DNA of 64,000 bases from a virus (lineage: Duplodnaviria > Caudoviricetes): IMG/VR virus record IMGVR_UViG_3300009183_004565; one strand, written 5' to 3'. The position numbers and the translations under genes were made by a program. This document shows positions 314-53,716 of this stretch, piece by piece (positions within the stretch are counted from its first letter, which is position 1; each line of letters starts with the position of its first letter). The notes under the pieces were generated by a model that saw only the letters and a list, made by a program, of their open reading frames with translations, did not search any database and had not been told where the DNA came from.

Positions 314-342
314 TTGACTTTTCTAAATACAATAGTTACAAT
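314..342 (+). promoter_or_regulatory. Sigma70-like promoter upstream of the sliding-clamp-like gene
   Basis: TTGACT-17 bp-TACAAT; AGGAG RBS at ~356-360. Confidence 0.6.
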
Positions 343-366
343 TACAAATATTCTTAGGAGAAATAA

Positions 367-9948: not shown

Positions 9949-10522
9949 TCGCATATTGGAGTTTGAACAAGCACTGGCCGAATACACAGGTGCGCCATAC
10001 GCAATCATGACTGATTGTTGTACTCATGCTATTGAGTTGTGTCTAAGATTTCAAAAGCCCACTCATTGTGCATTTACTGCTTTTACCTATCTGTCTGTGC
10101 CAATGACCATGCACAAACTAGGAATTGAGTACAGATTGATTCCCGAAGTATGGACTGGCGAATATCAATTCCACGGAACCACAATTTGGGATAGCGCACG
10201 TAGGCTAGAGCGAGGAATGTATCGAGCAGGACAGATGCAATGTCTCAGCTTCGGTTACACTAAGCCTTTACAAATAGGCCGTGGTGGTGCTATACTGTTA
10301 GACAATGAACAAGCATACAACACTATAACGGAACAACGATATGATGGGCGCAAATTATCAGTTACACCCTGGCAGGAACAAAAAACCTTCATGGTGGGCT
10401 ATCATTATAGACCGACTCCGGAAGAAGCTGCGATTGGATTAATAAAATTGCGCGATGTTAATGAACTGCCTAAATATCACGAATATCCTGATCTAAGAGA
10501 TATTAAAATTATTGGAGAATAA
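9938..10522 (+). CDS. Compact DegT/DnrJ/EryC1/StrS-family PLP aminotransferase-like protein
   Basis: FEQALAEYTG, TDCCTHAIEL, WDSA, SFGYTKPLQIGRGG (PLP lysine). Only ~195 aa. GTG at 9938 is the likely start. Confidence 0.7.
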   Translation: MSFDRILEFEQALAEYTGAPYAIMTDCCTHAIELCLRFQKPTHCAFTAFTYLSVPMTMHKLGIEYRLIPEVWTGEYQFHGTTIWDSARRLERGMYRAGQMQCLSFGYTKPLQIGRGGAILLDNEQAYNTITEQRYDGRKLSVTPWQEQKTFMVGYHYRPTPEEAAIGLIKLRDVNELPKYHEYPDLRDIKIIGE

Positions 10523-11354
10523 GTTGACCACAAAAGAATTTACACCAAATCCAGTATTAAACGAAACACCTGATAAAGAATTTGTTCCTATGGAACTGGA
10601 ATCTATGTATGTGGCTTTACCACAAAAGGTATATGTGAAAGCTGGCGAAGCTGCTGCCGCTAAACAATCATATTTGTCGGATGCTATTCGTGCCAGGATG
10701 AAACGTGACGGTAAAAGATACTGGGCAGGAGATAACATCAGTGACTATCTAGCGGACAGTGACAAAGAACATCTAATCAGCGAAGCCGCAGAAGCATTTG
10801 AACTAGTACTAGACCGTTTGCTGATTGATCGCGAAAATGATCCTAACAGTCGAGGTACAGCACGACGCCTGGCTAAAATGTACTTCAACGAAATAATGGC
10901 AGGTAGATATGAAACGGCACCAGACGCAACGGCTTTTCCAAATGATTCGGAGGAAAGATATGAAGGTATGCTTGTGGTTAGAAGTGAACTTCGCAGTATG
11001 TGTAGCCATCATCACCAGCCCGTTACTGGTGTTGCTTATATTGGTATTATCGCCGCTAATAAACTTATCGGTCTTAGTAAGTATACTCGTATTGCTCAGT
11101 GGTGCGCTCGTCGTGGCACACTACAAGAAGAGCTGTGTAATGATATCGCTAGAGAGATTATGAAGGCCACTGATGCTAAAGATGTAGCAGTATATGTACA
11201 AGCGATACATGGATGTTGCGAAAATCGCGGCATTATGGCACATAGTTCGTTAACTCAAACTACAGTATTAAAGGGAACATTCAAAGATGATCCTCATACT
11301 AAGAAGGAATTCTTCGACAACATTAAACTACAACAAGAATTTGCACCAAGGTAA
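10512..11354 (+). CDS. folE: GTP cyclohydrolase I
   Basis: TARRLAKMY, SMCSHH, GLSKYTRIAQWCARRGTLQEEL, HGCCENRG. Confidence 0.93.
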   Translation: MENKLTTKEFTPNPVLNETPDKEFVPMELESMYVALPQKVYVKAGEAAAAKQSYLSDAIRARMKRDGKRYWAGDNISDYLADSDKEHLISEAAEAFELVLDRLLIDRENDPNSRGTARRLAKMYFNEIMAGRYETAPDATAFPNDSEERYEGMLVVRSELRSMCSHHHQPVTGVAYIGIIAANKLIGLSKYTRIAQWCARRGTLQEELCNDIAREIMKATDAKDVAVYVQAIHGCCENRGIMAHSSLTQTTVLKGTFKDDPHTKKEFFDNIKLQQEFAPR

Positions 11355-34925: not shown

Positions 34926-36022
34926 GCATAATTCCTTTTTTTGGTGTTGCTAGACAATATGCAAACTTGCGAGAGGAAATACTTGATGTTACTGATCGTG
35001 TATACTCTACTGGTCGGGTTTTAGACGGCGAATACACTAGAGAGTTTGAATTACAGATAGCAAGACGATGCCAGAGAGCGTATGCACTTGCAGTCAACTC
35101 CGGCACTCAGGCCTTAATCTTTGCACAGATGGCCACCATGGATCGCCCGCCATATTCAGTTTTAATTCCCACAGTTAGTTTTGTAGCCACTATTAATAGT
35201 GTGCTTATGAATAATCATACCCCGGTATTCTGCGATGTTGATTATAAAGGATTACTGGATCTTGATTCATATTCGTATAAGCTAGATCAAAGTGTTGGTG
35301 CAGTTATGTATGTAAATCTATTTGGTAACTGCCTTGACTGGGATAGATTCCAAATGCATACCAAGTTCTTTAATGATGATCTAGTTATAATCGAAGATGC
35401 TGCACAAAGCTTTGGTGCCAGTTATAAAGGTACGCCTAGTGGCAAGATGGGTGATGTAAGTGTGTTAAGTTTTGACCCAACCAAGAATCTAAACAACTAC
35501 GGATCGGGTGGTATGATACTTACAGACGATTTTCAAATATACGAAACCGTTCGCGGACTTAGAGACAACGGCAAAATCATACACGACACCCCAGGCACTA
35601 ACAGTAAGATGAGCGAGGCTGACTGTGCTCAGATGTTGATTAAACTAGGACACTTTGACGCATGGCAGCGTCGTAGATCGGAAATTGCCAACTACTACAT
35701 ACAAGAACTATATCAATACGTAGACATTCTTACTTCCAACGAAGGAGTAGAACATGCCTGGCATAAGTTTGTTATTAGAACAGAACATAGATCTGCATTA
35801 ATGAGTCACTTATCATATCAAGGAATTGAAACCAAGGTACACTACGACTATGCATTATACGATCTAGGTGTAGGATTTAATTATGTAGATTATAGTCGAG
35901 ATTTATACACAGAAACAAGTACTTTTACTAGAGAATGTTTAAGTTTACCCGTATATCCTGAACTGTCCGATGCAGAAGTAGAAACTGTAGTAGAAAAAAT
36001 TAAGCAGTATATAGATTATTAA
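34922..36022 (+). CDS. DegT/DnrJ/EryC1/StrS aminotransferase (amino-sugar biosynthesis)
   Basis: VNSGTQAL, IEDAAQSFG, SFDPTKNLNNYGSGG, LSLPVYP. Confidence 0.9.
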   Translation: MSIIPFFGVARQYANLREEILDVTDRVYSTGRVLDGEYTREFELQIARRCQRAYALAVNSGTQALIFAQMATMDRPPYSVLIPTVSFVATINSVLMNNHTPVFCDVDYKGLLDLDSYSYKLDQSVGAVMYVNLFGNCLDWDRFQMHTKFFNDDLVIIEDAAQSFGASYKGTPSGKMGDVSVLSFDPTKNLNNYGSGGMILTDDFQIYETVRGLRDNGKIIHDTPGTNSKMSEADCAQMLIKLGHFDAWQRRRSEIANYYIQELYQYVDILTSNEGVEHAWHKFVIRTEHRSALMSHLSYQGIETKVHYDYALYDLGVGFNYVDYSRDLYTETSTFTRECLSLPVYPELSDAEVETVVEKIKQYIDY

Positions 36023-38216
36023 ATCTATTCTTCAACCAAGCCCATTCAAAACTTAACATAAGTTTATCGTAGTCCCCCGCAACTTCTTCGTAGTAATTTA
36101 CAGCATCAGCTGATCCACGCAAGCACCATTCGGCATAATCACCATCTGCTACTGTTAACCAAGTGTTTAATCTGTGCTCAGTCTCTAGTGTAGGTTGTGT
36201 GGCCATAAAGTGTTTTAACTTAACTACTTCACGGAATGCTGTGCGCCAAGTCATCCAAGGATCTTGATTGAATCGTGCTATTCCACTTAATAAAGGTACA
36301 CTCTCATGAGGCTGACTTAATGTAAAGTCAATACCAGGATTGTTATTCTCTAGTACTAGTTTCTTATTATACGCAATCATACCTTGATGTCCATACACCA
36401 ATCCGTTGACAGGATTTTGTGCATTAAAGATATAGTGTTTGGGCTCTTGCCAATAGTCTGGTTGCCAATCATACCAAGGAAAACTTCCGCCCGCTACTTC
36501 AAGTTTGGCAAATACAGCAAAGAACCAAGGCGTGGCGCTTGCACGGGCTGCTGCTTGATATGCTGCCACACGGCCGTCGACTCCCTGTATCCATGTAACT
36601 GCACTGTTTGTCATGTATTCAGTGTGACGATACATCATTTCTTCATCAGGTTCGCCGTTACTAATGAATACGATATCCAGCGGTGGCACACTTGAGTAAC
36701 GTTTAATCTCTTTGTTTATGTAAGGATAATCATATACTTGTCGCTTAATATAACTTTTTGCTTCCCTAGGCACAAGAGATGTAGATCCACTTTGACTTAT
36801 TGGAATAATAGTTCTGTCTTCGGCTCTCCAAAGACACGGAACAGTGTAATTATTCATGATATAATCTCCAACACTAGAAAAAATAGCATACGGAAAATCA
36901 AATTGATACTGTTGTATTGCATCAACAATAGTATCTTCAGAATAGTTTACTAACGTGGGAGGAAATCTTTCTACTTGTTGGTCAGTGCAATAATTAATTA
37001 CATTAAACCAATCAAGTATTGCTAATTCATACAATTGGCGTTTAAACGATTCAACGTGAATAAAGAAAGTGTCTCCCCTTCGTTGATTGTCGCTAGCAAA
37101 TACATGAACCATTTCTTTTTGTGATGGATCTGGGTGCCATGTAAAGTCAAAATCTGTGTAATCGCAGATACTACTAATAATCCAAACAAACTCAGTAGTT
37201 GCTAGATTGACTATACGCTTAAAAACATTTAAATGATTATCAACATAACGTGTTAATTTGATATCAGGATAAGATTCTTGTAGTGTTTTGAACTGATTGT
37301 TGCTTTGTGGATTTAAAAAATCCATGTAAAAGATTTGCGTGGCATTGTTACGTATGCGCTGATTACTCATATACTTGATACCTGCGGTTCCGCGATATAC
37401 AGGACCACCATCACGTTGCCATTGTGTAGGAAAATGATATTCGTAGTCCGGTTCATCTAAATCAGGGTGCCATGAATAGTCAAAATCTGAGTCATTGATT
37501 CCGCTAGGAATATCCCAATTGCTGCGATCTTCTAACTTACTTACTTGTTGACTATACACATACTTGATACCTGCAGATCCGGGATATACCGGTCCTCCAT
37601 TACGTTGCCATTGTGTACCAAAACGATATTCGTAGGGCGGATCTAAGGGATTAGGATGCCAGGAATAATCAAAGTTGGTATCATTGATGTTGCTGGGTAT
37701 AATCCAGTTGCGTTTATCTTCAGTGACTGTAACAGTAAAATCATTACATAACTTAATTCCAGTTGCACCTGGTACATGATAAACTAATCCGCAACTGGTT
37801 TGATGTTGACTGGCAAAGTGATACGTGTAAGGAGGGTCGTGCGAATCAGGATGCCAACTACGATCTATGCCCAAGTAGCACAATAGTTTTGGGACAAGTA
37901 ATTTCCAGTTTTCTTCATTGCTCAATCTTGTTACAGATTGTTCTGTGCGCCAATTCCATTCTTTATTATGCGCAGTATCTTTGTTTGCTAGATACACATC
38001 GCCGTTGCGTTGCCACTGACTAGAGAATACATGAACATGATCTTGTTCCCAAGGTGCCGGATTCCAATCAAAATCAAAATTGGTGTAATCATTACCACCA
38101 TAAATATACCAGTAGAATCGAGTTCTACTCTTATCAGCAGCATCCTCTAAACTGTTAGCAGGCTGTTCATGTGCAAATCTATTGGGCTTGGGCCCAAAAT
38201 AAAAAACATCAAACAT
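36000..38216 (-). CDS. Multi-module GT-A-like protein with internal repeats
   Basis: C-terminal module (DIVFISNGEP...GVDGRVAAYQAAA...WRTAFRE.VK) is paralogous to 53710-54639; at least five FD..WHP-type units. Confidence 0.6.
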   Translation of the reverse strand: MFDVFYFGPKPNRFAHEQPANSLEDAADKSRTRFYWYIYGGNDYTNFDFDWNPAPWEQDHVHVFSSQWQRNGDVYLANKDTAHNKEWNWRTEQSVTRLSNEENWKLLVPKLLCYLGIDRSWHPDSHDPPYTYHFASQHQTSCGLVYHVPGATGIKLCNDFTVTVTEDKRNWIIPSNINDTNFDYSWHPNPLDPPYEYRFGTQWQRNGGPVYPGSAGIKYVYSQQVSKLEDRSNWDIPSGINDSDFDYSWHPDLDEPDYEYHFPTQWQRDGGPVYRGTAGIKYMSNQRIRNNATQIFYMDFLNPQSNNQFKTLQESYPDIKLTRYVDNHLNVFKRIVNLATTEFVWIISSICDYTDFDFTWHPDPSQKEMVHVFASDNQRRGDTFFIHVESFKRQLYELAILDWFNVINYCTDQQVERFPPTLVNYSEDTIVDAIQQYQFDFPYAIFSSVGDYIMNNYTVPCLWRAEDRTIIPISQSGSTSLVPREAKSYIKRQVYDYPYINKEIKRYSSVPPLDIVFISNGEPDEEMMYRHTEYMTNSAVTWIQGVDGRVAAYQAAARASATPWFFAVFAKLEVAGGSFPWYDWQPDYWQEPKHYIFNAQNPVNGLVYGHQGMIAYNKKLVLENNNPGIDFTLSQPHESVPLLSGIARFNQDPWMTWRTAFREVVKLKHFMATQPTLETEHRLNTWLTVADGDYAEWCLRGSADAVNYYEEVAGDYDKLMLSFEWAWLKNRFNNLYTA
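37345..37722 (-). repeat. Recent tandem duplication, two ~189-bp (63 aa) units inside the 738-aa gene (boundaries approximate)
   Basis: NWIIPSNINDTNFDYSWHP...QWQRNGGPVYPGSAGIKY vs NWDIPSGINDSDFDYSWHP...QWQRDGGPVYRGTAGIKY; matching DNA 189 bp apart. Confidence 0.85.
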
Positions 38217-39426
38217 GTATAATATTCACAGTCATTACGAACATATCTTTTCTTTTTTAAAAACTGTTGTTAAAGATCCTGTACTTCTAAGTTTTTATCC
38301 ATTTGGCTCTACTAAATTTGAAAATGTTGAATACATGCATTGCAACGGTGATGGAACATCACCGGTAATAGTTTGCTATGATCAAGAACCAATATTGGAT
38401 AGTTGTGTTGAAACATTTAGACAAGTTAAACAAATGTATTCACCGGGCGGAGATCGAAGCATAATACTACTTAATACAGAAACAAATAGCAAAATAAAAA
38501 ACAAACTGCTAGAAGAATTTAAATTTGGCGATTGTTCTTGCTTCTTTCATATCTTTGCTGCAGCAGATTGGTATCGCGGGTACCAGCATTGTGTCGAATT
38601 AATAGACCCTTCAAAGCGTAAAATTAAAAAGAAATACATAACCTTTAATCGTATTACTGGTAACAGTCGAGCTTATCGTAGTCTTTTTGTTGCCGAACTT
38701 GATAAGAATAATCTAATAGAGCACGGGCATGTTAGTTATAGCGATACTTGTCCAGAACACGGACACTATAGCACAAGTATACACGAAATAATTGAAAAAC
38801 ACAATGTTTCTACGGAGTACGTGTTAGCATGTAAAACAATTTTGGATAGTATTACCTTTCCGTTGCGTATTGATTTTAAAGATACTGCTCTTATACCAAA
38901 CGGTAGCCAAACACTAAATGCTATACCAGAAATGATGGAAAGTTTTTTACATGTAGTAACTGAAACATGCTTCTGGGAAACTAAAGATCATTTAACTGAA
39001 AAAATATTTAAACCTATTGTGGCCAGACAACCTTTTGTATTACTTGGGTGTGCCAATAATTTAAAATATTTAAAAAACTACGGATTTAAAACGTTTGATT
39101 CCTGGTGGGATGAGAGTTACGATAAAATTCAAGATCCTGTAGAAAGAATTCAAGCTGTGGTAAAAATTATCAAAGACATATGTGCAATGCCCGAGGACGA
39201 ATTGGAAGCAACGCTTCGTGGCATGCAATATGTTTTAAATTACAATTACAATTTATTTTACAGTAAAGAATTTGTTCAACGTGAGTGGAATAATTTAAAA
39301 CAAAGTCTTACACAGGCAGTTGTTCAACATCCACCCCGCTCGCCTGGAGGAACTCCAATCCTAGATCATCTCTATATTTCTCTTGATAATACACCTGCTG
39401 AATACCAGACTGGTATATCAGTTTAG
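38215..39426 (+). CDS. Putative glycosyltransferase (GT-B, GT10/exostosin-like C-terminus)
   Basis: FLHVVTETCF...LTEKIFKPI...PFVLLG...GFKTF..WWDESYD. Confidence 0.5.
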   Translation: MYNIHSHYEHIFSFLKTVVKDPVLLSFYPFGSTKFENVEYMHCNGDGTSPVIVCYDQEPILDSCVETFRQVKQMYSPGGDRSIILLNTETNSKIKNKLLEEFKFGDCSCFFHIFAAADWYRGYQHCVELIDPSKRKIKKKYITFNRITGNSRAYRSLFVAELDKNNLIEHGHVSYSDTCPEHGHYSTSIHEIIEKHNVSTEYVLACKTILDSITFPLRIDFKDTALIPNGSQTLNAIPEMMESFLHVVTETCFWETKDHLTEKIFKPIVARQPFVLLGCANNLKYLKNYGFKTFDSWWDESYDKIQDPVERIQAVVKIIKDICAMPEDELEATLRGMQYVLNYNYNLFYSKEFVQREWNNLKQSLTQAVVQHPPRSPGGTPILDHLYISLDNTPAEYQTGISV

Positions 39427-39730
39427 CGCATTCAAGACAAGGGCTATGAGTAACAAATAAAGTAGCTTGATCCCCGGAATCGTTTGACTTTGCCAACTTT
39501 GCAATAGCATTTGATTCGGCGTGTAGTACTTCTGCTTTTGTTTTTAATGATCCATCTTCGGATACATCCTCACAAACATTGCTCCATCCGGCTGGCATTC
39601 CATTATATCCAATGGAAATAATTCTATCATCCTTGACTACGATAGCACCAACTTTTAATCTACGTGCGTGACTTAATTCAGCAAATGTGTGTGCTGTCTG
39701 CATATAAGCACGTTTAAACTTTTCCTTCAC
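39308..39730 (-). CDS. dCMP deaminase
   Basis: VGAIVVKDDRIISIGYNG, HAESNAI, SPCLECAK. Confidence 0.92.
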   Translation of the reverse strand: MKEKFKRAYMQTAHTFAELSHARRLKVGAIVVKDDRIISIGYNGMPAGWSNVCEDVSEDGSLKTKAEVLHAESNAIAKLAKSNDSGDQATLFVTHSPCLECAKLIYQSGIQQVYYQEKYRDDLGLEFLQASGVDVEQLPV

Positions 39731-40095
39731 TCTACACCCATTTGCTTTCTAATTGCAGTTGCCGATATTGCCTGTGTGGTATCATCAAACGTTTCTTGTT
39801 CTATTAGGTATCCTACATCTCTACCATACGTAATATTTACAATATTAGGAACCACTAAAATTTCATACATTCCTTTGTAAATAGGATCAAGATCTGCACG
39901 AATATAATTCTTTACTTCTTCTAGACCAAAAGGGTTACTATAGTTCCATCCTTGACAATCTCGTATCATAATGCAGACCTGCCCGGTCTTAGCAATAGCA
40001 CGTTCAAATAATGCACGATGACCTGCATGCCAAGGTTGCCACCGTCCTAGCATTTGTACTGTAGGCTTTTGCCAATCAAAAGTTTTTTCTGTCAT
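39727..40095 (-). CDS. Small HxGH (HIGH-superfamily) nucleotidyltransferase
   Basis: LGRWQPWHAGH, NPF, ISATAIR. Confidence 0.75.
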   Translation of the reverse strand: MTEKTFDWQKPTVQMLGRWQPWHAGHRALFERAIAKTGQVCIMIRDCQGWNYSNPFGLEEVKNYIRADLDPIYKGMYEILVVPNIVNITYGRDVGYLIEQETFDDTTQAISATAIRKQMGVE

Positions 40096-40727
40096 GGTTT
40101 ACCCCATTTAATTTTATGCCATATACGTTCATGAAAATAGTATAAAACAATCTTTGTAAAAAATTCAATGCTGGCTATTCCTGCTGCAAGATGAGGTTGC
40201 CCGGTTAATAACCAACTAACAACAAATGTATCAAGGCTGCCAGTGAATCTCCATGTAACTGCTTTGGTAATAGATCTGATACGACTCTCTTGTCGCTGTT
40301 TAAAATTCATTGCAAGTTTATTTGCAATCGTATTGGCCCAGCGTTCGGCGCTTTTCGCCATAATACGATAATCGTATTGCTCGGGTGCTACAAATACTCT
40401 ATTAGTATCTTCATAACGACTAGTATCAATAGTATCCAACCAGATAACCAAATTGGCTCCATATGCCTCCCTCATTGCAGGTAAAGGAGCAACAAAGTCA
40501 CTAATTACAAAGTCTGCACTAGACTTTTCTGCCAGGTCTCGCATACGGTGCCCTTGGCGTATACGACCTGCTTCACTAAAATCCCAATCGTCGAATCGTT
40601 CACGTACCTCATCAGCATTAAACCATTCAACCGTAAAACCTTTATTGTGTAATTCTGTTTGAAGGGCTGTGGCTAGATAAGTTTTACCCGAACCAGGAAG
40701 TCCCATTATTAATATTCGAACGCTCAT
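40092..40727 (-). CDS. cysC: Adenylylsulfate (APS) kinase-like domain fused to DUF2061-like C-terminus
   Basis: GLPGSGKT, NADEVR, FSEAGRIRQ, DFVAP, VFVAPE; C-terminal ESRIRSITKAVTWR...HERIWHKIKWG. Confidence 0.75.
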   Translation of the reverse strand: MSVRILIMGLPGSGKTYLATALQTELHNKGFTVEWFNADEVRERFDDWDFSEAGRIRQGHRMRDLAEKSSADFVISDFVAPLPAMREAYGANLVIWLDTIDTSRYEDTNRVFVAPEQYDYRIMAKSAERWANTIANKLAMNFKQRQESRIRSITKAVTWRFTGSLDTFVVSWLLTGQPHLAAGIASIEFFTKIVLYYFHERIWHKIKWGKP

Positions 40728-40728
40728 A

Positions 40729-41391
40729 TTAATTCCATTTTTGTATCCATTGATTGGATAATAAATTAAATTTACTTATATCTAAATTAACTTCGCCAAT
40801 CTGATAGTTGCTAATTAACTGAAATAATTGTTGTGCTAACTGGTTATTGTTACTCCTACTAAGGTGATTTGGTCTTTTGTCGTTAACGAGACTGCCATCT
40901 TTAGATGCTATTTCATCTAAGCTGATTGCTGATAAACTCGGAGAGACTTTCATACCATTAAGCACATATTTTTGATTCTGGGGAAACGAAAATAAATGTA
41001 CAACTTTAATGTTATTCCATTGTTGATTTATTTCTTCAAACCATTTTAACTGCGCCCAACTTAAAAACATTTCGTTGTGTATATACTTATAATATAAACC
41101 AATTGCACGATTTAACTCATTGTTTGACTCTAAATTTGAAAAATTTACTTGATTAATTTCCTCATCAGTTGTCGGTATACGTTGTGCATTTGTATGTACA
41201 AATACGATTATTTCACAGTTATCAATATGTTCCGGGGGCAATCTCTCTAAAAAACTTTTTACACTCCACCAAGAGCCTCCAGCTAAACCAAAATTAATAA
41301 GATTCATGTCTAGTGACTTAGCCAGTAGTCTAGGCCAGAAATTTGGAGTAGTACAAAAACTATCACCAACTATAATTATATTTTTCAACAC
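40729..41391 (-). CDS. SGNH-like protein
   Basis: IIVGDSFC, GLAGGS, RPNHLS. Confidence 0.55.
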   Translation of the reverse strand: MLKNIIIVGDSFCTTPNFWPRLLAKSLDMNLINFGLAGGSWWSVKSFLERLPPEHIDNCEIIVFVHTNAQRIPTTDEEINQVNFSNLESNNELNRAIGLYYKYIHNEMFLSWAQLKWFEEINQQWNNIKVVHLFSFPQNQKYVLNGMKVSPSLSAISLDEIASKDGSLVNDKRPNHLSRSNNNQLAQQLFQLISNYQIGEVNLDISKFNLLSNQWIQKWN

Positions 41392-41462: not shown

Positions 41463-42731
41463 TCATTGTTCTTCCAACCATGGAAATAAGCTACGCCAAT
41501 TGGTATTGCGTCTACGATCTATTTCATCTAAATAAATTTTTAATGTTTCGATCATATCATTGTTTGCTGGTGTAGTATCTACTTGTTTGTAAATTCCCGT
41601 CATATGCTCATAGTTTTGATTTTGATAATCTGTGTCTCTTGGCATTAAATTTAAAATTTGTTCAAATTCGTTTTTGAATAATCCAGGAACAAAAATATCA
41701 GGCATCATGTACGGAGGAGCATTTGCTGTCATGAAACTGAAACTGATTTTTCTTTTAGGATCATTGTTCCATGATGCTAGTCTAATGGTATTCCATTCAT
41801 TTATTTTGGCAATATATTCGGGCATTGTTTTAATGCTTAACGCATTAATTGCAGCATTTACACAAAGAACAATATCCTTGTCCAACAGATACTCCATGTT
41901 AGCAGTATACTCATTTAAATCTAATCCGTATCTAATATACTCTTGCTGTGGTCCCCAGCAATCCAAACTTCCGGTAATTTGCAATTCCTTAATTTTTTTA
42001 TCTTGTTTAAGTTTTATCATCTTATTGATAATATTTTTAAACTTATTAGGATTTACTTTTAAATTACTGATCAAAGTAAATCTCATATTAGGTGCTGGAA
42101 ATTTTTCAAAAAAATCTAAACACATTTCTAATTCAGGCTGATGAAAAGGTTCGCCACCCAGTATATGTAGATCTTGTAGGCCATGACCATATTTTTCTAA
42201 CCATTGAAAAAACTTTTCTCGCATTTGGTCATATTCTTTATTAAATCCTACTTGTTCAGTGGTCTTTAAAAGAATCTGCTTATTTTGAAAATTTCCAAAT
42301 CTATTATTTTCTGCTTCCCACATAGAACTAAAATGCGGTCCGCAATATAAACAACTCATGTTACATGTATTAGAAAAATAAACTTCTAGTATTTTTGGAG
42401 TTACAACATTTGTACTATTATCTTCAAGAAGTTCATCCGGAACTTCGTAATGCATGCTAGACAATTGAAATTGTCTGTCGCTAACACCTCCTGCTTCTTC
42501 TATTTTTTGACAGTATTCGCATCCTGCTTTTGGCCATTCGCCTTGGCGCATCATCTCTCGAGTTGCAATTTTACGAGGAGTATTATGAAATGAATCAAAT
42601 GTGTCAACTGTAATTTTATCGTGATTGACTCTATGACAACTGCTAGTGGTTCCTATGTTTAAAAAAACGGTGGACCAAGTCCATTTTAAAAGACACGCTG
42701 TATCTGATTTGATTGGGAATATTTGTTTCAA
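41463..42731 (-). CDS. Radical SAM protein with N-terminal SPASM/twitch-like domain (subtype B)
   Basis: CLLKW...SSCHR...CEYC; CNMSCLYC; GGEP. Confidence 0.85.
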   Translation of the reverse strand: MKQIFPIKSDTACLLKWTWSTVFLNIGTTSSCHRVNHDKITVDTFDSFHNTPRKIATREMMRQGEWPKAGCEYCQKIEEAGGVSDRQFQLSSMHYEVPDELLEDNSTNVVTPKILEVYFSNTCNMSCLYCGPHFSSMWEAENNRFGNFQNKQILLKTTEQVGFNKEYDQMREKFFQWLEKYGHGLQDLHILGGEPFHQPELEMCLDFFEKFPAPNMRFTLISNLKVNPNKFKNIINKMIKLKQDKKIKELQITGSLDCWGPQQEYIRYGLDLNEYTANMEYLLDKDIVLCVNAAINALSIKTMPEYIAKINEWNTIRLASWNNDPKRKISFSFMTANAPPYMMPDIFVPGLFKNEFEQILNLMPRDTDYQNQNYEHMTGIYKQVDTTPANNDMIETLKIYLDEIDRRRNTNWRSLFPWLEEQ

Positions 42732-45359: not shown

Positions 45360-46458
45360 ATCCTGGCTTCATCATATCTATTTGCATCTGTTTATAATTA
45401 TTGTCCGACCAGCTATAATCAAATGTACTACTAACTCCATCTACTTCAATTTTATAGATATCCAAGTGACTGCTTAGTGTATTCCAAACATCTTGATAAT
45501 CTGTTGTACCAAAACTTGATTGTAAATCTATTTGTCCAATTGGTAAATACCCGCAACTTAATTTTGGGTCGCGATAATCTCTACCGTTGTCTGTTAACCA
45601 TTTTCTAAATTTATCTTGTTCAATGTTGTGCCACGGATGAGGGCCACCATACACAACATCATTTCCCCATTCAACATCAAATTCGCCGCTGTAATATTTT
45701 AACTCAGTAATTGCTTCGCACACTGTCGCTGTTAGTGGAGGTGCATCTTCATCACGGAACACTTCGTATACTGTTTTTCCTATTTGTGTCCAATGCATAT
45801 ATACTCCACCCAATACACGGTCATATCCATTAACAGAAAATAGTTTTCTATGTTCATCAGTTAATTCATATCGTTGAGCATTAATAAATGTTGTAATTTG
45901 ACTAGGACGCACCCAGAACGGCAATGTTGCAGCTTTACGCTGACTTAGAATCAAGTTTTCCATTTCATGGCAGATATTGTTTAACTGCCGAATAGCATAC
46001 TTTGTTTCATAGTCTGCCTTGCGATAGTACTCACTTAAATCCCAAACTGTACCTTGTAGTATTTCAAAATGATTATGCAATTTATTTAAGACTTCATGAT
46101 TGAGACCATTGTCTGCGTAATCAAATGCTACAACATTTTCTGTTGTATATACATCATCAATTTGATAATCCGTGAAAAAGTTATTGATAGTCGCTACGGC
46201 AGAATTTAATTCATTGCAAAGGTATTCTAGAGTTCTTGCTGTTTGCGGAAACCCCATAAAACAAAAATTCTTTTCTAGTAGATTTTTGTTAGTTAATAAC
46301 ACTTTTAACGCATCAATCCAATTTTTAGATAATTCGTTATTATGCGAGATTATATTATAATCAAATTGATCGTTATAATCCAATGGGTTGCGTAATACAA
46401 CTTTAACTGATGGCGTTCCACCACTCATATACATCTGCTCTTTTTGAAAGTATTTCAT
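45334..46458 (-). CDS. Hypothetical protein, His/Glu-motif family
   Basis: LHNHFE...CHEME; HWTQIGKT; FRKW...DPKLSCGYLPIG. Confidence 0.65.
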   Translation of the reverse strand: MKYFQKEQMYMSGGTPSVKVVLRNPLDYNDQFDYNIISHNNELSKNWIDALKVLLTNKNLLEKNFCFMGFPQTARTLEYLCNELNSAVATINNFFTDYQIDDVYTTENVVAFDYADNGLNHEVLNKLHNHFEILQGTVWDLSEYYRKADYETKYAIRQLNNICHEMENLILSQRKAATLPFWVRPSQITTFINAQRYELTDEHRKLFSVNGYDRVLGGVYMHWTQIGKTVYEVFRDEDAPPLTATVCEAITELKYYSGEFDVEWGNDVVYGGPHPWHNIEQDKFRKWLTDNGRDYRDPKLSCGYLPIGQIDLQSSFGTTDYQDVWNTLSSHLDIYKIEVDGVSSTFDYSWSDNNYKQMQIDMMKPGYDYSSSWR

Positions 46459-47719
46459 CCATAGTAATAGATTGACTACGAATAGCTTCTAATTGTAACA
46501 CGCGAGCCTTACCTCGAGCAATACCTAAACGGTATGCTTCTTCACCATATTGCTCTTGAAAAGTAGGGCGTGTTTTAAGTTGAACTAGTATATCCTTTAA
46601 CGGGCCGAGGGGTGTGGTTGGGCCATCCAAAATTTCATCTACCCATACATTTAATATCTTTCTAGGTAGTACTAAAGGTGACATAACTATGTCCGGGCTA
46701 AAACTAAAGACAACTTTGGCTAGTATGTCTACGCCCAAATCGTTACCTAACTGCTGTATATTACCAACTTCAAACATACCCGGAAGGGTAAGTGTAAAGT
46801 CCAATCTCATTTGACGTCTGTTTGTAGCGAGGCCAACTCCTCTTTTAAAGTTTTCAAGCCATTCTGTATAGTTAAGGCCTGTTCGTATATACTCTCCAAT
46901 TCTTTCTGTGCCATCGATGCTTGCACATATCTGCCAATCCCGTAACCTACAAAGTATATCACTGTACAAATCAATATTCCGATACCGTACGCGGCTAAGG
47001 TTTGTGTTATATCTTGCATAGACATTTGGTCCATCTCCTAGTTCAATTATACGCTGCATATACCGCCAATGTTGTTCGTACATTAACGGTTCTCCTCCCA
47101 CCCAGTACACTTCTTCGATACGGTGGTCCTCTACTGCTGCTGCGAACTCGGCTTCAATTTGAGTTGTTTGGAATTTTTCAATTTGATGTTTGATCTCGGG
47201 TTTCATCCAATTATTCTTTGGATCCGCCCAGTTGATCATGTTGTGTTGGCGTTGCTCACTTTCCCAAGCACTGCTTAACATGTCTCCACACATGCGACAT
47301 TTGAAGTTACAGAGATTACTGAATCTGTAATCCCACGATACTGGCTTCATTGTGGTATAGCCAGTTGCGTCTGTTTCTTCTACTATTTTATCATACTTAT
47401 GTCCGAATAATTGATTAAAATAACTGCGGTAAACGTCAGTGTTTAATAGTTTATCGTTACATACTTCACACTCAGATAATGTTTCACCGGCCATCATGCG
47501 GCGGCGCACACTGCGCATACGATCACTGTTCCAGTGTTGTTCTAATGTAACGGGAATATATTTTCCAGTACCAGCACTGGTATCAATATACTGTTCAAAG
47601 TTTTGTGCAGGCTCACGACTGGCGCAGCATAGCCTACGTTCAGTTTGCGGACTTAGATACGTATGCGTCCACGGTGCCATGCATAATGTAGTAGGTTTAG
47701 TTGAATTCAAGTTTTTCAA
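46403..47719 (-). CDS. Radical SAM protein with N-terminal SPASM/twitch-like domain (subtype A)
   Basis: CMAPW...LCC...CEVC; CNFKCRMC; GGEP; YNTN. Confidence 0.85.
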   Translation of the reverse strand: MKNLNSTKPTTLCMAPWTHTYLSPQTERRLCCASREPAQNFEQYIDTSAGTGKYIPVTLEQHWNSDRMRSVRRRMMAGETLSECEVCNDKLLNTDVYRSYFNQLFGHKYDKIVEETDATGYTTMKPVSWDYRFSNLCNFKCRMCGDMLSSAWESEQRQHNMINWADPKNNWMKPEIKHQIEKFQTTQIEAEFAAAVEDHRIEEVYWVGGEPLMYEQHWRYMQRIIELGDGPNVYARYNTNLSRVRYRNIDLYSDILCRLRDWQICASIDGTERIGEYIRTGLNYTEWLENFKRGVGLATNRRQMRLDFTLTLPGMFEVGNIQQLGNDLGVDILAKVVFSFSPDIVMSPLVLPRKILNVWVDEILDGPTTPLGPLKDILVQLKTRPTFQEQYGEEAYRLGIARGKARVLQLEAIRSQSITMDEILSKRADVYEWWNAIS

Positions 47720-48488
47720 ATTCTAAAATTGGTTGTTTTACGATATACATTAAGTCATCTAAATTTGTAACTTTTCCAATTACAGGATAGCCTGTGTATC
47801 TTAAGATTTTTTCTGGGCCATGTAGATGGTAAAAATTATTATCGTTCTTCTTAATATCGTCTAATAATTTTTGATGCTCTGTAAATTTTTTAAAATTATT
47901 AATGACAATATTGATCCCGGGTCTAATAACACTATGAAATTTACACGTCTGTGATATTTTTTGATAATCTTTTTCTAAATAAAGTTGCAACGGGCTTGCA
48001 CCAACAAATGGATATTGTAGTTTAATATCACCAATTGTTGTTGAATCTTGAAATTTAAAAAAATCGTCGATTGGTATTGTATTATTGTTATACCATTCAA
48101 TTTGTAACCAATCTTGTCTTGTCACTAAGTGATTTCTTCCTTCATTTAGTAAATGCAAGCACTGATGAATTTCGTGTACCAATTCGTCGCAATCTGCAGG
48201 TATACTATCAAACCCTTTTTCTAATAATACTTCAATGTCTTTATGTAACCTAGATGCAACTTCATGGTCGCCAGGTGTATAATCCCAATCCCAGCCAAGT
48301 TTATAGTTGGCTTCCTTAACTAAATCACTCATGTACTCAATGGTATATTTTGCTGGATCCCTAAAAATAGGCATTTGATTATTATAATTTTTGTAAAGTA
48401 AATTATAATAATTCTTGCCAGTTACAGAATCTTCTAATTCTACTGTTAGTGCAGGTAGATCCTTAAAAAAAATTTTAAAATCAAACAT
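47697..48488 (-). CDS. Hypothetical protein, His/Glu-motif family
   Basis: LHKDIE...IHQCLH; YPFVGASP; YTGYPVIGKV. Confidence 0.6.
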   Translation of the reverse strand: MFDFKIFFKDLPALTVELEDSVTGKNYYNLLYKNYNNQMPIFRDPAKYTIEYMSDLVKEANYKLGWDWDYTPGDHEVASRLHKDIEVLLEKGFDSIPADCDELVHEIHQCLHLLNEGRNHLVTRQDWLQIEWYNNNTIPIDDFFKFQDSTTIGDIKLQYPFVGASPLQLYLEKDYQKISQTCKFHSVIRPGINIVINNFKKFTEHQKLLDDIKKNDNNFYHLHGPEKILRYTGYPVIGKVTNLDDLMYIVKQPILEFEKLEFN

Positions 48489-49695
48489 AGCCCATTGCCC
48501 GTGCTATTTCCGGATGCGTATTAATAAAGTTCTGTTTTCTGTATGCATCAGTCTGTTGCATCTTACGACAAAATTCTTTACCATCGCTTCCAGCGCCATT
48601 TTTAATAAAGTTTATTATATTATTAATTTCAAGTTGATAACGATTAGATGACCAGAAAGTAGTTGTTAATTTATCAAGCACCAATTCTTGTGCAGTCTGA
48701 GTCATATATTGTATACTCATATGATCCGGACTATGCATCATATTAAAGTAAACGTCGCCAAAATTCTTAGTGTCTGCCCACGCTAACAATTCATCAAGAT
48801 AATACACATTTTGTATATTAACTGTAAAACATAATTGTGTAGTTATGTTGGGATACAGCAGTTGCATGCCATGAACTGAATCAATTATCGAATTAGCAGT
48901 ACCCCACTTTGCGCCGTATCTTTCGTATTCAAATCTATTGTTTACATTATCAATACTAAATGCAACGTCAACACGCCCAAAGTCTCTCCAAATTTCAACA
49001 AGATCCTGGGGCCATTGTGTAGCATTAGTGTTATAATGTATATCAATATTTTTGCTGTATCCTTGTGCTACTGCGTATTTTAATAGCTCAATATGTTCTT
49101 GTATTAACCAAGGTTCACCACCAGTAAACTCAAGATACTTAATATTGGGCAATAGTCTCTTTAAGTTTTCCCAGAAGTTCGTATCTGGATTACGCGGCCA
49201 CGAACCTTGTTTTAACCATTGATAAGCAATATGTTGTTTCTTATCAAAGTCTTTGGGCATGTACTCTAATTCTTCTACTGCCCATTTACTGCTAGACCAG
49301 GATCCACATATACGGCACTTAAGATTACAAATATTACCAAGTTTCAAATCAAGAAACCATAATTGGTCTGGATTATCATTATCCCAGTCGACGTCATGAT
49401 ACAATTCTTTTAAACGTATACGACTATTCATGCGTTTACTTGTTCTGCCGGCAGACTCCTCGTCCCAACATAGTTTACAAGTTTCTGGTTGTTCGCCAGC
49501 ACGAAATTGCCTACGAAGACGTTGCATGTATTCGCTATGATAAATTGTTTCTAAATTGTCTTTATTTAAATCAAACTTATCACCGTTGCTGTTTGTTATT
49601 TCCTCTCTGGCCAAACAACACGGTCTAGCAGTTCCGACTGGACTAGTTTCTATACTAATCCACGGCAACATACAAATTGTATTAGGCAAGATCAT
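48481..49695 (-). CDS. Radical SAM protein with N-terminal SPASM/twitch-like domain (subtype A)
   Basis: CMLPW...RPCC...CKLC; CNLKCRIC; GGEP; YNTN. Confidence 0.87.
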   Translation of the reverse strand: MILPNTICMLPWISIETSPVGTARPCCLAREEITNSNGDKFDLNKDNLETIYHSEYMQRLRRQFRAGEQPETCKLCWDEESAGRTSKRMNSRIRLKELYHDVDWDNDNPDQLWFLDLKLGNICNLKCRICGSWSSSKWAVEELEYMPKDFDKKQHIAYQWLKQGSWPRNPDTNFWENLKRLLPNIKYLEFTGGEPWLIQEHIELLKYAVAQGYSKNIDIHYNTNATQWPQDLVEIWRDFGRVDVAFSIDNVNNRFEYERYGAKWGTANSIIDSVHGMQLLYPNITTQLCFTVNIQNVYYLDELLAWADTKNFGDVYFNMMHSPDHMSIQYMTQTAQELVLDKLTTTFWSSNRYQLEINNIINFIKNGAGSDGKEFCRKMQQTDAYRKQNFINTHPEIARAMGYV

Positions 49696-51001
49696 TTAGT
49701 TCTGGGAATACCTTCCAAAAATTTTCTTTTCTTAATATATCTAATTTTTCTATTTCTTCTCTAAATCTTGGTAATAAGTGACTGGCATCATTTGCTTGCA
49801 TTAGATTAATTAAACTCTTATACCCAGTGGTTGCACGTTGCAATGTATCCTGTGGTTCTAACCATTCAATATGTTTTTGATACGCAGGTATCACTACAGT
49901 ATCTTTAAACTTGGGTGGCAGAATATCTACACGATACCACTCAGGGCCTTGGCATACGTTAACATTAAAATCTTTGGCTTTAATAAGACCTAAATCTGTC
50001 CACTCACGATGAAAATCTAATATATGCAGTACATTCATTGCACTAATTGTTGCAGCAACATAAAAATCAACATGCGGAACTTCTTCTATCATTCTTCTTC
50101 TGTTATTAATTGCCTGTTCCCAGTCAGTTCCTTTACGCATTAATTCTGCACGTTCTCCTGATGCATCTAAACTAGCACCAACACTAATATTTTTAAAATG
50201 TTTCCAGTAATTAAAAACGTGTTTATCTTTAAATGCAAGTTCACTAAAGTTTGTGTTATACTGAATACGTACATCTGTTTTTCCGTGCTCGATAAGTTTC
50301 TCTAACATGAAATAATGTTCTTTCATTATCAGCGGTTCACCGCCGGCAAAATAAACTTGTTCAAGGTATGGAATATGCGGAAGCATTTGCTCGAGCATAG
50401 AATCTTCGTCCCCGGCAGTGTATTCAACTCTTGCCATTTCTCTTCCAAGTACATCAGGTTTAGTGTTGTATAGTTTGACATGATCGTTATACCAGTTGCT
50501 GCTGAATATAGGACCACAGCTCCGGCAACTAAAATTGCATAAATTACTAAACCTAACATCCCAATATCTTATTTTAAATTCTGGGTGTGTTCCGTCTGCT
50601 TCTGTTTGATTTATCTCATTTATTAAATGTCCATAGTTACGATTACTATCATTTCGCATACTAAAAAATCCATTTTTTTCTTGCTCGTAACACTTGGTAC
50701 ATTCTTTACATGATCGATCGTTCAACATGTTTGTTCGGATTGTTTTATATGGATCTTGGTTCCATACTTCAATCATTTTATTCTTTCTAAGGTCACCTAA
50801 CGGTTCCCAATATTCTGCTAAACAACAAGGATAGACTCTACCATCGGGATATGCATGCATATGCACCCACGGTAGCATACAAAATGTTTTACTTTTGGTT
50901 AATTTATATAATTGATCATCGCTAAGTTTATCTTGATCAATGAAATAAGGAACACGTTCATTATAGACATATCCTTTGTTATAGAATCCTTTTACACTCA
51001 T
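49682..51001 (-). CDS. Radical SAM protein with N-terminal SPASM/twitch-like domain (subtype A)
   Basis: CMLPW...YPCC...CTKC; CNFSCRSC; GGEP; YNTN. Confidence 0.87.
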   Translation of the reverse strand: MSVKGFYNKGYVYNERVPYFIDQDKLSDDQLYKLTKSKTFCMLPWVHMHAYPDGRVYPCCLAEYWEPLGDLRKNKMIEVWNQDPYKTIRTNMLNDRSCKECTKCYEQEKNGFFSMRNDSNRNYGHLINEINQTEADGTHPEFKIRYWDVRFSNLCNFSCRSCGPIFSSNWYNDHVKLYNTKPDVLGREMARVEYTAGDEDSMLEQMLPHIPYLEQVYFAGGEPLIMKEHYFMLEKLIEHGKTDVRIQYNTNFSELAFKDKHVFNYWKHFKNISVGASLDASGERAELMRKGTDWEQAINNRRRMIEEVPHVDFYVAATISAMNVLHILDFHREWTDLGLIKAKDFNVNVCQGPEWYRVDILPPKFKDTVVIPAYQKHIEWLEPQDTLQRATTGYKSLINLMQANDASHLLPRFREEIEKLDILRKENFWKVFPELNDLA

Positions 51002-52350
51002 AATGAATTATACCAATCTGCTATAGCAGGAAATGTTTCTGTAAAATTTTTATTGCGCCGTTGATTATACTGTTGATGAAATTGTTTAAAGTCGTTACGC
51101 AACTTGGGCAAGTCAAATGCCTCGCTGTGTGGAGTTTTAACTACATCAAGATAGTCTATCAGGCGTTGTACATGATTACGTTCGTGTTCGTGTAACCATT
51201 CGTTATCGTTGGCTGCTAACCATGCTTCTAGATTATTTTTGTGTCGTGTTCTGTGTTCGTCAGGCAATACCAATGGACTTTGAAAACTAGGAAAACGTAA
51301 AATATTTAGTGTAAAGTTCGGAAAGTCTTTTCCGTAACACATTTTCCACTGTACCATACAGTCCAAGAACTCAGTTAAACTTTCCAAACACAATGCATTA
51401 ATGGTACACATAATGTGTAATCCACGCAATTTAACTACACTGTAGTTGTCGCATATGAGTTCTATACTATTAGCCCAATCGTCCCAAACCAATCCGTCTC
51501 TAATATACTCTGCATGACTTCCGATAGATTCGTTACTAGTGTATAGGTCAATTGGTGCGTCCACACTATTAAATAAGCGATCGATATCAACTTGTGTTCC
51601 CAAATTACTGTTAATTGCTAATCTTGTTTTACTTTTACCACGATTAGTCTTAAACCAATCTAGCAGTTGCCAGGTATATCCTGACATTAAAGGCTCACCA
51701 CCGGTGATACGCAATTCGTCTAGTGTACTATGGAGATCCGACTCCCACCACTTAAAAAACGCTTCCACATACGGATTACTCTCGCCAAATCTATAAAGTT
51801 GACTACTGTCATGAGTGTGAGTAAAGTGATTCCTACCGTCTGACACCAAACCAGTGTAGGGTCCATTATCTCTGATATCTTTAACCCATGTTGAACTGAA
51901 AGCAGGATTGCAGTAAGAGCAAGCAAATTGGCAAGTACGGTCAAAACTAATTTCAAGAGTGCGAAGATTAATATCTTCGGTGTATGATGTTTTGTATGCA
52001 TGATTTAAATCCTCGTCTGAATATATTACTGTTTTGTATACTCGATCGCTAATGTTATCTCTACCTATATCCTCTATTTTCCAACAATACTCACAGCCTT
52101 CAGGTCTGTCGCCTTTTTGCATTAGGCGTCGCTCTGCTTTCTTTTTGTGTGTATTATGTAATGTTCGAGGATTTTCAATCACATCTTCTACTTCAATCTT
52201 GTGTGGCAATGGGTGATGACAACTTGTGGTCATACCGCTGCCCAACCATATAGTAGCGTTGTACCATTTTGCTCCGCAGAATGAATCTGACTTGATGTCA
52301 ATCACTCTACGCTTATATTGTAAATCTGTTTCGTTATTAATTCTGGGCAT
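50998..52350 (-). CDS. Radical SAM protein with N-terminal SPASM/twitch-like domain (subtype B)
   Basis: CGAKW...TSCHH...CEYC; CQFACSYC; GGEP. Confidence 0.87.
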   Translation of the reverse strand: MPRINNETDLQYKRRVIDIKSDSFCGAKWYNATIWLGSGMTTSCHHPLPHKIEVEDVIENPRTLHNTHKKKAERRLMQKGDRPEGCEYCWKIEDIGRDNISDRVYKTVIYSDEDLNHAYKTSYTEDINLRTLEISFDRTCQFACSYCNPAFSSTWVKDIRDNGPYTGLVSDGRNHFTHTHDSSQLYRFGESNPYVEAFFKWWESDLHSTLDELRITGGEPLMSGYTWQLLDWFKTNRGKSKTRLAINSNLGTQVDIDRLFNSVDAPIDLYTSNESIGSHAEYIRDGLVWDDWANSIELICDNYSVVKLRGLHIMCTINALCLESLTEFLDCMVQWKMCYGKDFPNFTLNILRFPSFQSPLVLPDEHRTRHKNNLEAWLAANDNEWLHEHERNHVQRLIDYLDVVKTPHSEAFDLPKLRNDFKQFHQQYNQRRNKNFTETFPAIADWYNSL

Positions 52351-53716
52351 GATATCTACATTCCTCCCAGAACTCTCGCATTTCCGGGAACGTTTTTAAA
52401 AAGTCTGTTTCTCTACGTTTATCGTGCTCGTTAAAGAATCTATAAAAGTCAGCACGTTGTAGTTTAACATATTCTGGATCTAATTTGCTACCTTCCTTCA
52501 TCCAATCAATAGTTCTCCGCATACGCTGTACTTCATAATCTTTGAATCCTTGAAATGGACGGTCAGGTCGTTCTAAATTTTCTTCCATCCAATTGGCTAC
52601 ATCAGTTAATCGTTGTGCATAAACCGGCGGAAGTATTTGTAAACTTTGCCACGTGGGTTGTCTCAATAGTGGTGTATCAAACCAAACACGCTGATACGTA
52701 TCACTATGTAATCGTCTATAATTTAAAATATCCTGTAGTAAATTTTTAATACCTAATACACTAAGATTGTTCATTGTTATAATAAAAGTAAGACTGTTTC
52801 TTTTTGTTACTTCTATTAGATACTTTGCACAATTATATTGAAGTCTAGAATAATTTAATCCATGCCTTATATATTCTGCATGTTCAGGAATTCCGGAGTC
52901 TACACTAACATACTGCATGAAATGTTCAATTTGTGTGTCACATAATCTTTGAACGTAGTCAATATACTTGTTCATTAACTGTGGATCTACACTAAAATTA
53001 CTAGTAACATCAATATGCAAATCCGGTTTAGGCAATGCCAATACATAATCAAATACCTTAAAGGTATTACGATCCATCAACGGTTCACCACCAGTCATCC
53101 TAAAATGTTTTAGTTTTGGGTAAAGAGTGGGCCACCACGCCCAAAAAGCATCTACATAGGGGTTGTCATTGCGAACAGGTATAGGCTTGCGGCGGCCATT
53201 AAAATGGATCGGGTCATTATGAGGTTTACTAGTAGGGTAGGCTCCCCATCGTTGGATTTCGTCTTCCCACGACGAACTAAACTGTGGACTACAGTAACTA
53301 CAGCGAAGGTTACAAGCATGATTAAAATTAACTTCCACATAGGAAGGAACGGCATCTTCATCTCCTGTCAAATTTAGTATTGTATCAAAGTGTTCAGCTG
53401 CCCAGGGCTCACCACTACGGTAATGTCTGTCACTTAGGTTACCTAAGTCTTCTTGTGTCCAGCAATAACTACATTCTTGTGGACGTTCATTGCGTAACAT
53501 AATTTTACGCTGCTCTTTTTTATATGGTGTATTGTGTAATGCACCAGGATTATCTTTTAGTAATGTGGCATCTATTTCGTGTAGCGGAGGATGATAGCAA
53601 CTGTTGGTTAATCCTGTAGGTAGGTGTAGGCTAACCTGCTGCCACTTGGCAAGGCACAGAGCTTCGCCCAGTTTCGCCTTCATCTGCTCTGCAGCAGACA
53701 TGAAGTCACTTACCAT
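52337..53716 (-). CDS. Radical SAM protein with N-terminal SPASM/twitch-like domain (subtype B)
   Basis: CLAKW...NSCYH...CSYC; CNLRCSYC; GGEP. Confidence 0.87.
   Translation of the reverse strand: MVSDFMSAAEQMKAKLGEALCLAKWQQVSLHLPTGLTNSCYHPPLHEIDATLLKDNPGALHNTPYKKEQRKIMLRNERPQECSYCWTQEDLGNLSDRHYRSGEPWAAEHFDTILNLTGDEDAVPSYVEVNFNHACNLRCSYCSPQFSSSWEDEIQRWGAYPTSKPHNDPIHFNGRRKPIPVRNDNPYVDAFWAWWPTLYPKLKHFRMTGGEPLMDRNTFKVFDYVLALPKPDLHIDVTSNFSVDPQLMNKYIDYVQRLCDTQIEHFMQYVSVDSGIPEHAEYIRHGLNYSRLQYNCAKYLIEVTKRNSLTFIITMNNLSVLGIKNLLQDILNYRRLHSDTYQRVWFDTPLLRQPTWQSLQILPPVYAQRLTDVANWMEENLERPDRPFQGFKDYEVQRMRRTIDWMKEGSKLDPEYVKLQRADFYRFFNEHDKRRETDFLKTFPEMREFWEECRYHAQN

Follow-up and report, generated by a model that had tools for sequence, protein, structure and literature searches.

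We analyzed a pair of neighbouring genes in a 64,000-nucleotide stretch of DNA (the window, by which the whole stretch analyzed is meant) from the Caudoviricetes virus record IMGVR_UViG_3300009183_004565. One gene encodes a trimmed relative of adenosine 5'-phosphosulfate (APS) kinase, and the other a nucleotidyltransferase (NTase) of the HxGH type with only 122 amino acid residues (aa). The pair is probably a non-orthologous, miniature synthase of 3'-phosphoadenosine 5'-phosphosulfate (PAPS), with the NTase serving as ATP sulfurylase. This assignment of the NTase is based on its fusion to a canonical CysC, its fusion to the trimmed kinase (mini-kinase), the adjacency of sulfotransferase genes, the gap left by Sat and CysDN in the bacteria that carry it, and its co-occurrence with AprA. 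The evidence comprises gene structure, domain families, folds, fusions, gene neighbourhoods and phyletic patterns; from it we infer sulfate as the substrate, a physical complex of the kinase with the NTase, and the identity of the sulfated target. To our knowledge, sulfate is activated by only two types of enzyme, Sat and CysDN. We lean, less firmly, towards a broader proposal in which the NTase would be the first member of a third class of ATP sulfurylases, not orthologous to the other two and derived from an ancestor resembling nicotinamide mononucleotide (NMN) adenylyltransferase (NMNAT) by loss of the NMN pocket. Together with the lid-less kinase, it would act as PAPS synthase in thousands of environmental phages, in SAR86 and in Marinimicrobia, and its role in SAR11 would be that of the missing enzyme for converting the APS formed by AprBA to sulfate and ATP.

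Coupling and fusion of the kinase and the NTase

The original prediction, made from the sequence alone, described a CysC-like kinase overlapping a small protein with the motif GRWQPWHAGH. Both open reading frames (ORFs) are found in the ORF listing on the minus strand, at the same coordinates as predicted (Table 1), and the kinase matches the Pfam family APS_kinase (PF01583). The stop codon of the kinase and the start codon of the NTase overlap as ATGA, and translational coupling of the two genes is predicted from this arrangement.

In other viruses, the two proteins are commonly joined. PHROG 10255, which occurs in Xylella phage Sano and its relatives and in Stenotrophomonas, Xanthomonas and Clavibacter phages, is a kinase-NTase fusion, and a single fused ORF of 257-302 aa is present in most of the 80 IMG/VR relatives (loci) that formed our viral comparison set. 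Because of these fusions, the kinase and the NTase appear to represent one functional unit. Many representatives of the 50%-identity clusters are 235-290 aa in length and have the NTase at the C-terminus, and the N-terminal kinase is present in those of them that were scanned. Moreover, the proteins P0278/P0390, from OCS116 and a gammaproteobacterial metagenome-assembled genome (MAG), join the NTase (44% identity) to an entire canonical CysC (PF01583 match with E 5.7e-63 over model positions 2-151 of 152).

The C-terminal DUF2061 domain of the window's kinase protein is a more variable companion. A separate DUF2061 ORF (~70 aa) often directly follows the fused gene in the IMG/VR relatives, two further proteins (P0053 and P0244) carry DUF2061 as an N-terminal extension of the NTase, and DUF4118 stands ahead of the kinase in place of DUF2061 in another (P0285). 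In SAR11, DUF2061 does not lie next to the pair, and tests of five bacterial carriers failed to find it in three, so the module does not always include this domain. The 191-aa forms of the NTase are not all DUF2061-NTase proteins, and some have a different N-terminal domain of ~70 aa. Such a domain ('IRFNHQH..WRVFEN..YLVEH'), unrelated to DUF2061, precedes the NTase in the closest relatives of the window (L003:9782-10357), where a stand-alone paralogue of the domain is encoded just upstream (L003:9483-9785). Some long proteins joining the NTase to partial chorismate synthase, DHQS_C or UCH are encoded on short contigs; they are probable gene-call chimeras and were set aside. In Xylella phage Sano, the gene directly upstream of the fusion, gp34, encodes a NADAR protein (L001:5565-6008, E 6.4e-26), and the protein encoded two genes upstream, of 195 aa, matches Sulfotransfer_4 below the threshold.

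Occurrence in marine bacteria and association with AprA

The kinase-NTase gene pair is also present in SAR11 and SAR86, and the NTase was further detected in Marinimicrobia, Flavobacteriales and one Patescibacteria MAG. In a set of 30 marine bacterial genomes carrying the NTase, Sat (PF01747) was detected in none and CysD (TIGR02039) in one, and Sulfotransfer_3 (PF13469) was present in 25. In 23 of these carriers, only one kind of APS-kinase-like gene was found, matching weakly and in part, as mini-kinases do (E 1e-7 to 1e-4). The partial match is stronger in four others, and this kinase gene adjoins the NTase wherever the neighbourhood was read. In addition, the NTase-carrying genomes have separate genes for NadD and CoaD, and the NTase is probably not a cofactor enzyme. 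Nothing informative was seen around the fused gene in G059, an alphaproteobacterium with 5.9 Mb.

The association with APS reductase was examined in 27 Pelagibacteraceae (SAR11) genomes with a completeness of ≥80%. The NTase is present in 19 of them, and AprA in exactly the same 19. Both genes lie on one contig in 19/19 and are ~370 bp apart in 18; the distance is ~640 bp in the nineteenth genome, where the aprA match is truncated. Sat was found in only two of the 27. In a previous study of SAR11, aprAB was reported to be under very strong purifying selection and the sulfate pathways were called incomplete (PMC12636525).

In the SAR11 genome AG-426-I21 (L131:1-7484), the same strand upstream of the pair encodes a giant protein of >3000 aa, a type I secretion ABC transporter, an HlyD-like protein, an IAT_beta protein and a 313-aa unannotated protein, and a sulfatase gene is located ~7 kb downstream of the pair. 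This neighbourhood may be related to a sulfated secreted product.

Association with sulfotransferase genes

The original prediction also placed sulfotransferases at 1-3 kb of the window, which agrees with the three sulfotransferase-like genes observed at 1095-3002. They are paralogous by BLAST (E 4e-35 to 1e-7), two of them match Sulfotransfer_2 (one marginally), and they are probable users of PAPS. In one viral relative (L034), homologues of the window genes 367-1098 and 2992-4539 flank the fused kinase-NTase gene, which is placed amid homologues of window genes from 35-4539. In several phage lineages, L025 and L046 among them, clear sulfotransferases of the Sulfotransfer_3/1 type (E ~1e-16) are encoded directly upstream of the module. 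Co-occurrence with sulfotransferases across phages had been proposed as a check; of the 80 viral loci, 30 have a sulfotransferase-like gene within 10 kb, and 17 have one at a distance of no more than 300 bp. In two SAR86 genomes (G016 and G009), a sulfotransferase gene is located immediately ahead of the kinase.

Sequence and predicted structure of the kinase

The PF01583 match covers residues 2-88 of the kinase (E 9.1e-10, 39.2 bits, cut-off 21.1) and spans only model positions 2-91 of 152. APS kinases are the best sequence matches in the PDB. The AlphaFold2 model (pLDDT 90.4) has the APS-kinase fold, as the top 37 Foldseek matches in the PDB are all APS kinases (E ~1e-6, TM-score ~0.55). Alignment with the canonical CysC domain of P0390/P0278 demonstrates that the P-loop GLPGSGKT and the motifs NADEVR, FSEAGRIRQ and FVAP are kept. 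Compared to the catalytic motif DGDxxR, NADEVR retains the second Asp and the Arg, and Asn replaces the first Asp; compared to the substrate motif FSxxDRxENIRR, FSEAGRIRQ retains the F, S and R, and FVAP takes the place of the substrate motif ISP, with the pattern (I/V)xP kept. The P-loop, NADxxR, FSxxGRxRQ and FV(A/C)P are common to the mini-kinase family. On sequence grounds, the protein is best described as a trimmed relative of APS kinases, not as a certified CysC.

The C-terminal part of the kinase protein matches the full DUF2061 model (PF09834, residues 153-204, model positions 1-52, 75.6 bits, cut-off 23.1, E 4.1e-21). In the AlphaFold2 model, helices 127-175 and 178-205 form a long helical hairpin covering this domain, which is thus a predicted helix-turn-helix hairpin and possibly a membrane anchor.

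Sequence and predicted structure of the NTase

The NTase contains GRWQPWHAGH at residues 17-26 as well as the motif SATAIR, and its score against Pfam CTP_transf_like (19.2 bits) falls just short of the 21-bit cut-off. The family is large: the 90% clusters contain 5585 relatives with E≤0.001, and 384 clusters of the 50%-identity library match with E≤1e-10, so the gene is far beyond a chance ORF. We found no paper describing the NTase family in the literature on DUF2061, PAPS synthesis by phages, the lack of Sat in SAR11 and NMNAT-like sulfurylases.

A profile built on 73 diverse relatives revealed that G17, R18, Q20, P21, H23, G25, H26, R45, P83 and N84 are invariant or nearly so, as are Y90, G91, R92, V94, G95, Y96, I110, S111, T113 and R116. 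D93 is the majority residue, but is missing from the 90% list. R45 and the segment YGRDVGY (90-96) are conserved features specific to the family. The profile matches the archaeal NMNAT MJ0541 (1f9a) with E 3.5e-12, and NadM is also matched. The alignment with MJ0541 covers NTase residues 14-85 and the SxTxxR tail, and skips NMNAT residues 76-108 (~30 residues), a stretch which we take to form much of the NMN pocket. Scores against the NMNAT family models (TIGR01527 and NF002243) are only 24-28 bits, compared to cut-offs of 127-181. The NTase thus seems to be an NMNAT-like enzyme minus the pocket for a large substrate, and a small second substrate would fit a protein without the NMN-binding segment of its nearest relatives.

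The AlphaFold2 model of the NTase (pLDDT 92) consists of a single shortened Rossmann-like domain with no N-terminal PUA-like domain. A Foldseek search of the PDB with this model gave no match at E≤0.001.

Proposed pathway

In the proposed pathway, the NTase would convert ATP and sulfate to APS and pyrophosphate (PPi) as a sulfurylase not orthologous to Sat or CysDN, and the trimmed APS kinase would phosphorylate the 3'-OH of APS to give PAPS. The equilibrium of the ATP sulfurylase step is unfavourable, and coupling by gene overlap or fusion would pull this first step forward. The DUF2061 hairpin would probably tether or oligomerise the complex. A sulfate pocket might perhaps be formed by R18, R45 and R92/D93. 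PAPS would then be passed to the phage sulfotransferase-like enzymes, allowing sulfation independent of sulfate activation by the host. In SAR11, the NTase may run in reverse, converting APS and PPi to ATP and sulfate.

If this is true, a third sulfurylase of ~120 residues would change the annotation of sulfur pathways. It would explain how sulfotransferases are supplied in SAR11, SAR86 and other streamlined ocean bacteria without Sat or CysDN, and show how sulfite oxidation is completed after AprBA in SAR11, the most abundant marine heterotroph. Many large phages would carry their own sulfation chemistry, and a very small module for regenerating PAPS would be available for biotechnology.

Evidence against the assignment and alternative explanations

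Several observations weigh against a PAPS synthase. The sulfotransferase-like genes of the window are ~37 kb away from the kinase-NTase pair, and their Pfam matches are weak. In Sano-type phages, the fusion lies beside a NADAR gene and the sulfotransferase-like neighbour is only sub-threshold. The kinase scores 38 bits against the TIGR00455 equivalog, far below the cut-off of 138.7, and a lid segment of ~18-30 residues (the KGLYKKAR region) is deleted throughout the mini-kinase family relative to the CysC domain of P0390/P0278; because of this score and the lost lid, the kinase might act on another nucleotide. The co-occurrence of the NTase and AprA in SAR11 may come partly from shared ancestry, and the pair and the apr genes are convergent there, so they do not form one operon.

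Further points of this kind concern the NTase itself. Its best named matches are NadM and archaeal NMNAT. The Pfam scan gave no PF01747 (Sat) match, Sat is absent from the PDB matches of the profile at E≤10, and the comparison by hhalign of the family with an alignment of 12 alphaproteobacterial Sat genes yielded a probability of only 13%, out of register. YGRDVGY follows HxGH and precedes SxTxxR, an order also seen in Sat; the hhalign alignment is misregistered, and no mapping of GRD to GRD was obtained from the profile-profile comparison. The predicted fold gives tied VIA-align Z values for phosphopantetheine adenylyltransferase (PPAT; 9.6), NMNAT (9.4), NadM (9.3) and Thermus thermophilus ATP sulfurylase (8.6); since these are tied, the modelled fold does not tell PPAT, NMNAT and ATP sulfurylase apart, and the substrate cannot be read from it. 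The original prediction regarded the small protein as a stripped-down ATP sulfurylase. Genomic context supports the PAPS-synthase function, but descent from Sat found no support, and by sequence, given the NadM/NMNAT affinity and the failed Sat profile comparison, the protein is not a shrunken Sat. If the NTase is a sulfurylase, its sequence would make it an analogue of Sat inside the same superfamily.

The main rival, which we consider unlikely, is that the pair makes another PAPS-like group-transfer cofactor, with the NTase joining a phospho-substrate or other small anion to a nucleotide and the kinase phosphorylating the product at the 3' position. APS-kinase homologues do act on nucleotides without sulfate: the CysC homologue Cj1415 of Campylobacter jejuni phosphorylates cytidine diphosphoramidate, and Cj1415-Cj1418 make CDP-phosphoramidate 3'-phosphate (PMC11800397). 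The divergence of the mini-kinase in score and lid is consistent with such a role, as are an NTase substrate pocket unlike that of every characterised family and the abundance in the window of unusual tailoring enzymes (a carbamoyltransferase, at least five radical SAM/SPASM proteins, an epimerase and a glycosyltransferase-like protein). However, a PPDK_N-type (Cj1418-like) kinase was looked for in the 144-kb record and not found, PAPS-type sulfotransferases recur as neighbours, the NTase is also fused to a canonical CysC, and it tracks APS reductase exactly in SAR11.

It is still less probable that the kinase alone acts on APS supplied by Sat or CysDN of the host (or by AprBA in SAR11), with an NTase that is non-catalytic or regulatory, or that consumes APS or PAPS in another way. 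AprBA can yield APS in SAR11 without a sulfurylase, the host of the phage may also supply it, and regulatory pseudo-enzyme domains exist in sulfate-activating enzymes, fungal ATP sulfurylase having an inactive APS-kinase-like regulatory domain. On the other hand, the invariance of HxGH, SxTxxR and the family-specific Arg/Asp in the 73 diverse sequences argues for catalysis by the NTase, and SAR86, OCS116 and other carriers have sulfotransferases without Sat, CysD or AprA as a source of APS.

A salvage module resembling NadR or a CoA synthase (nicotinamide riboside kinase (RNK) with NMNAT, or PPAT with dephospho-CoA kinase), which the sequence affinity to NMNATs, the NMNAT or PPAT labels of NTase members in source annotations and the NADAR gene of Sano-type phages would favour, is very improbable, because the NMN-binding segment is absent and the NMNAT cut-offs are far from reached, the kinase resembles APS kinase and not RNK or CoaE, the carriers encode NadD and CoaD separately, the NTase is missing from eight of the 27 SAR11 genomes and hence is not an essential cofactor enzyme, and the neighbours are sulfur enzymes rather than those of NAD or CoA metabolism.

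Comparison with known systems

The proposed PAPS synthase resembles the bifunctional PAPS synthases (animal PAPSS1/2, 1x6v, and Aquifex Sat-APS kinase, 2gks) in coupling an APS-kinase-type domain to an NTase of the HIGH superfamily. The order of kinase and then transferase is that of animal PAPSS, and the proposed chemistry, from sulfate to APS to PAPS, would also be the same. It differs in that the NTase has 122 aa and no PUA-like domain, compared to ~390 aa in Sat, lacks a PF01747 match and is closest to NMNAT, and in that the window's kinase is lid-less and has a DUF2061 hairpin attached, with the two genes split. The motifs of Sat are QxRNPxHxxH and GRDHAG; the NTase has the NMNAT-type GRWQPWHAGH and an invariant YGRDVGY.

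With MJ0541 (1f9a) and NadM (2qjt/2qjo), the NTase shares the motifs GR(F/W)QP(F/W)HxGH, NPF and SxTxxR and a similar fold (Z 9.0-9.4). Unlike these enzymes, it has no counterpart of ~30 NMN-site residues, the profile jumping from NMNAT residue 75 to 109; its family has its own invariant R45 and YGRDVGY, and in the genome it is accompanied by APS kinase, sulfotransferases and AprBA. The kinase is similar to CysC (PF01583, TIGR00455) in the P-loop GLPGSGKT, the catalytic Asp and Arg of DGDxxR, FSxxxR and the overall fold, and is set apart from it by Asn in place of the first Asp of DGD, by the loss of the ~18-30 lid residues and by its score (38 vs 138.7 bits). Finally, Cj1415 (CDP-phosphoramidate 3'-kinase) and Cj1416 (cytidylyltransferase) of C. 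jejuni likewise combine an NTase with a CysC homologue to produce a 3'-phosphorylated group-transfer cofactor (PMC11800397); in the present case, no Cj1418-like kinase was found in the record, and the neighbours of the module are sulfotransferases and APS reductase.

Genomic context of the module in the window

The source record is an IMG/VR virus entry of 144,478 bp with a completeness estimate of 41%, and the phage behind it is therefore probably very large. No close relatives of the record were found among isolated phages. The features discussed above are listed in Table 1.

Table 1. Coordinates of the kinase-NTase module, the adjoining gene and the sulfotransferase-like genes in the window
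Feature	Coordinates	Strand	Description
Kinase gene	40092-40727	minus	211 aa; trimmed APS-kinase-like P-loop kinase (~residues 1-145) and DUF2061 hairpin
DUF2061 module	40116-40271	minus	Residues 153-204 of the kinase protein; PF09834
Kinase stop/NTase start overlap	40092-40095	minus	ATGA, 4 bp, read from the sequence
NTase gene	39727-40095	minus	122 aa; HxGH nucleotidyltransferase, candidate non-orthologous ATP sulfurylase
dCMP deaminase	39308-39730	minus	GTG start overlaps the NTase stop as GTGA
Sulfotransferase-like gene	1095-1739	plus	BLAST paralogue of both 1711-2361 and 2358-3002
Sulfotransferase-like gene	1711-2361	plus	Sulfotransfer_2, E 1.9e-4, marginal
Sulfotransferase-like gene	2358-3002	plus	Sulfotransfer_2, E 3.2e-7

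The dCMP deaminase gene is predicted from its overlap to be co-translated with the kinase-NTase pair, yet it is functionally unrelated; it is also kept as a neighbour in the closest relatives of the window (L002-L007). On the other side, a 220-aa ORF at 40729-41391 (minus strand) ends 1 bp ahead of the kinase start. Its product begins with 'IIIVGDSFC', resembling an SGNH/GDSL hydrolase, and has no Pfam or PHROG match.

Four of the radical SAM genes (46403-47719, 48481-49695, 49682-51001 and 52337-53716) are located in a run at 46403-53716 on the minus strand, three of them with SPASM, and a fifth is at 41463-42731, an unusually high total for a single phage region. A 738-aa protein encoded at 36000-38216 (minus strand) contains at least four repeats of 'W(H/N)P.....PPY.Y.F..QWQR.GGPVY' and has no Pfam match; in L066 and other relatives, homologues are again encoded close to the module. 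In addition, a GTP cyclohydrolase I gene is present at 10512-11354 (plus strand, E 1.8e-40), and its homologues were observed near the kinase-NTase gene in several relatives (L009, L013, L028, L030 and L031).

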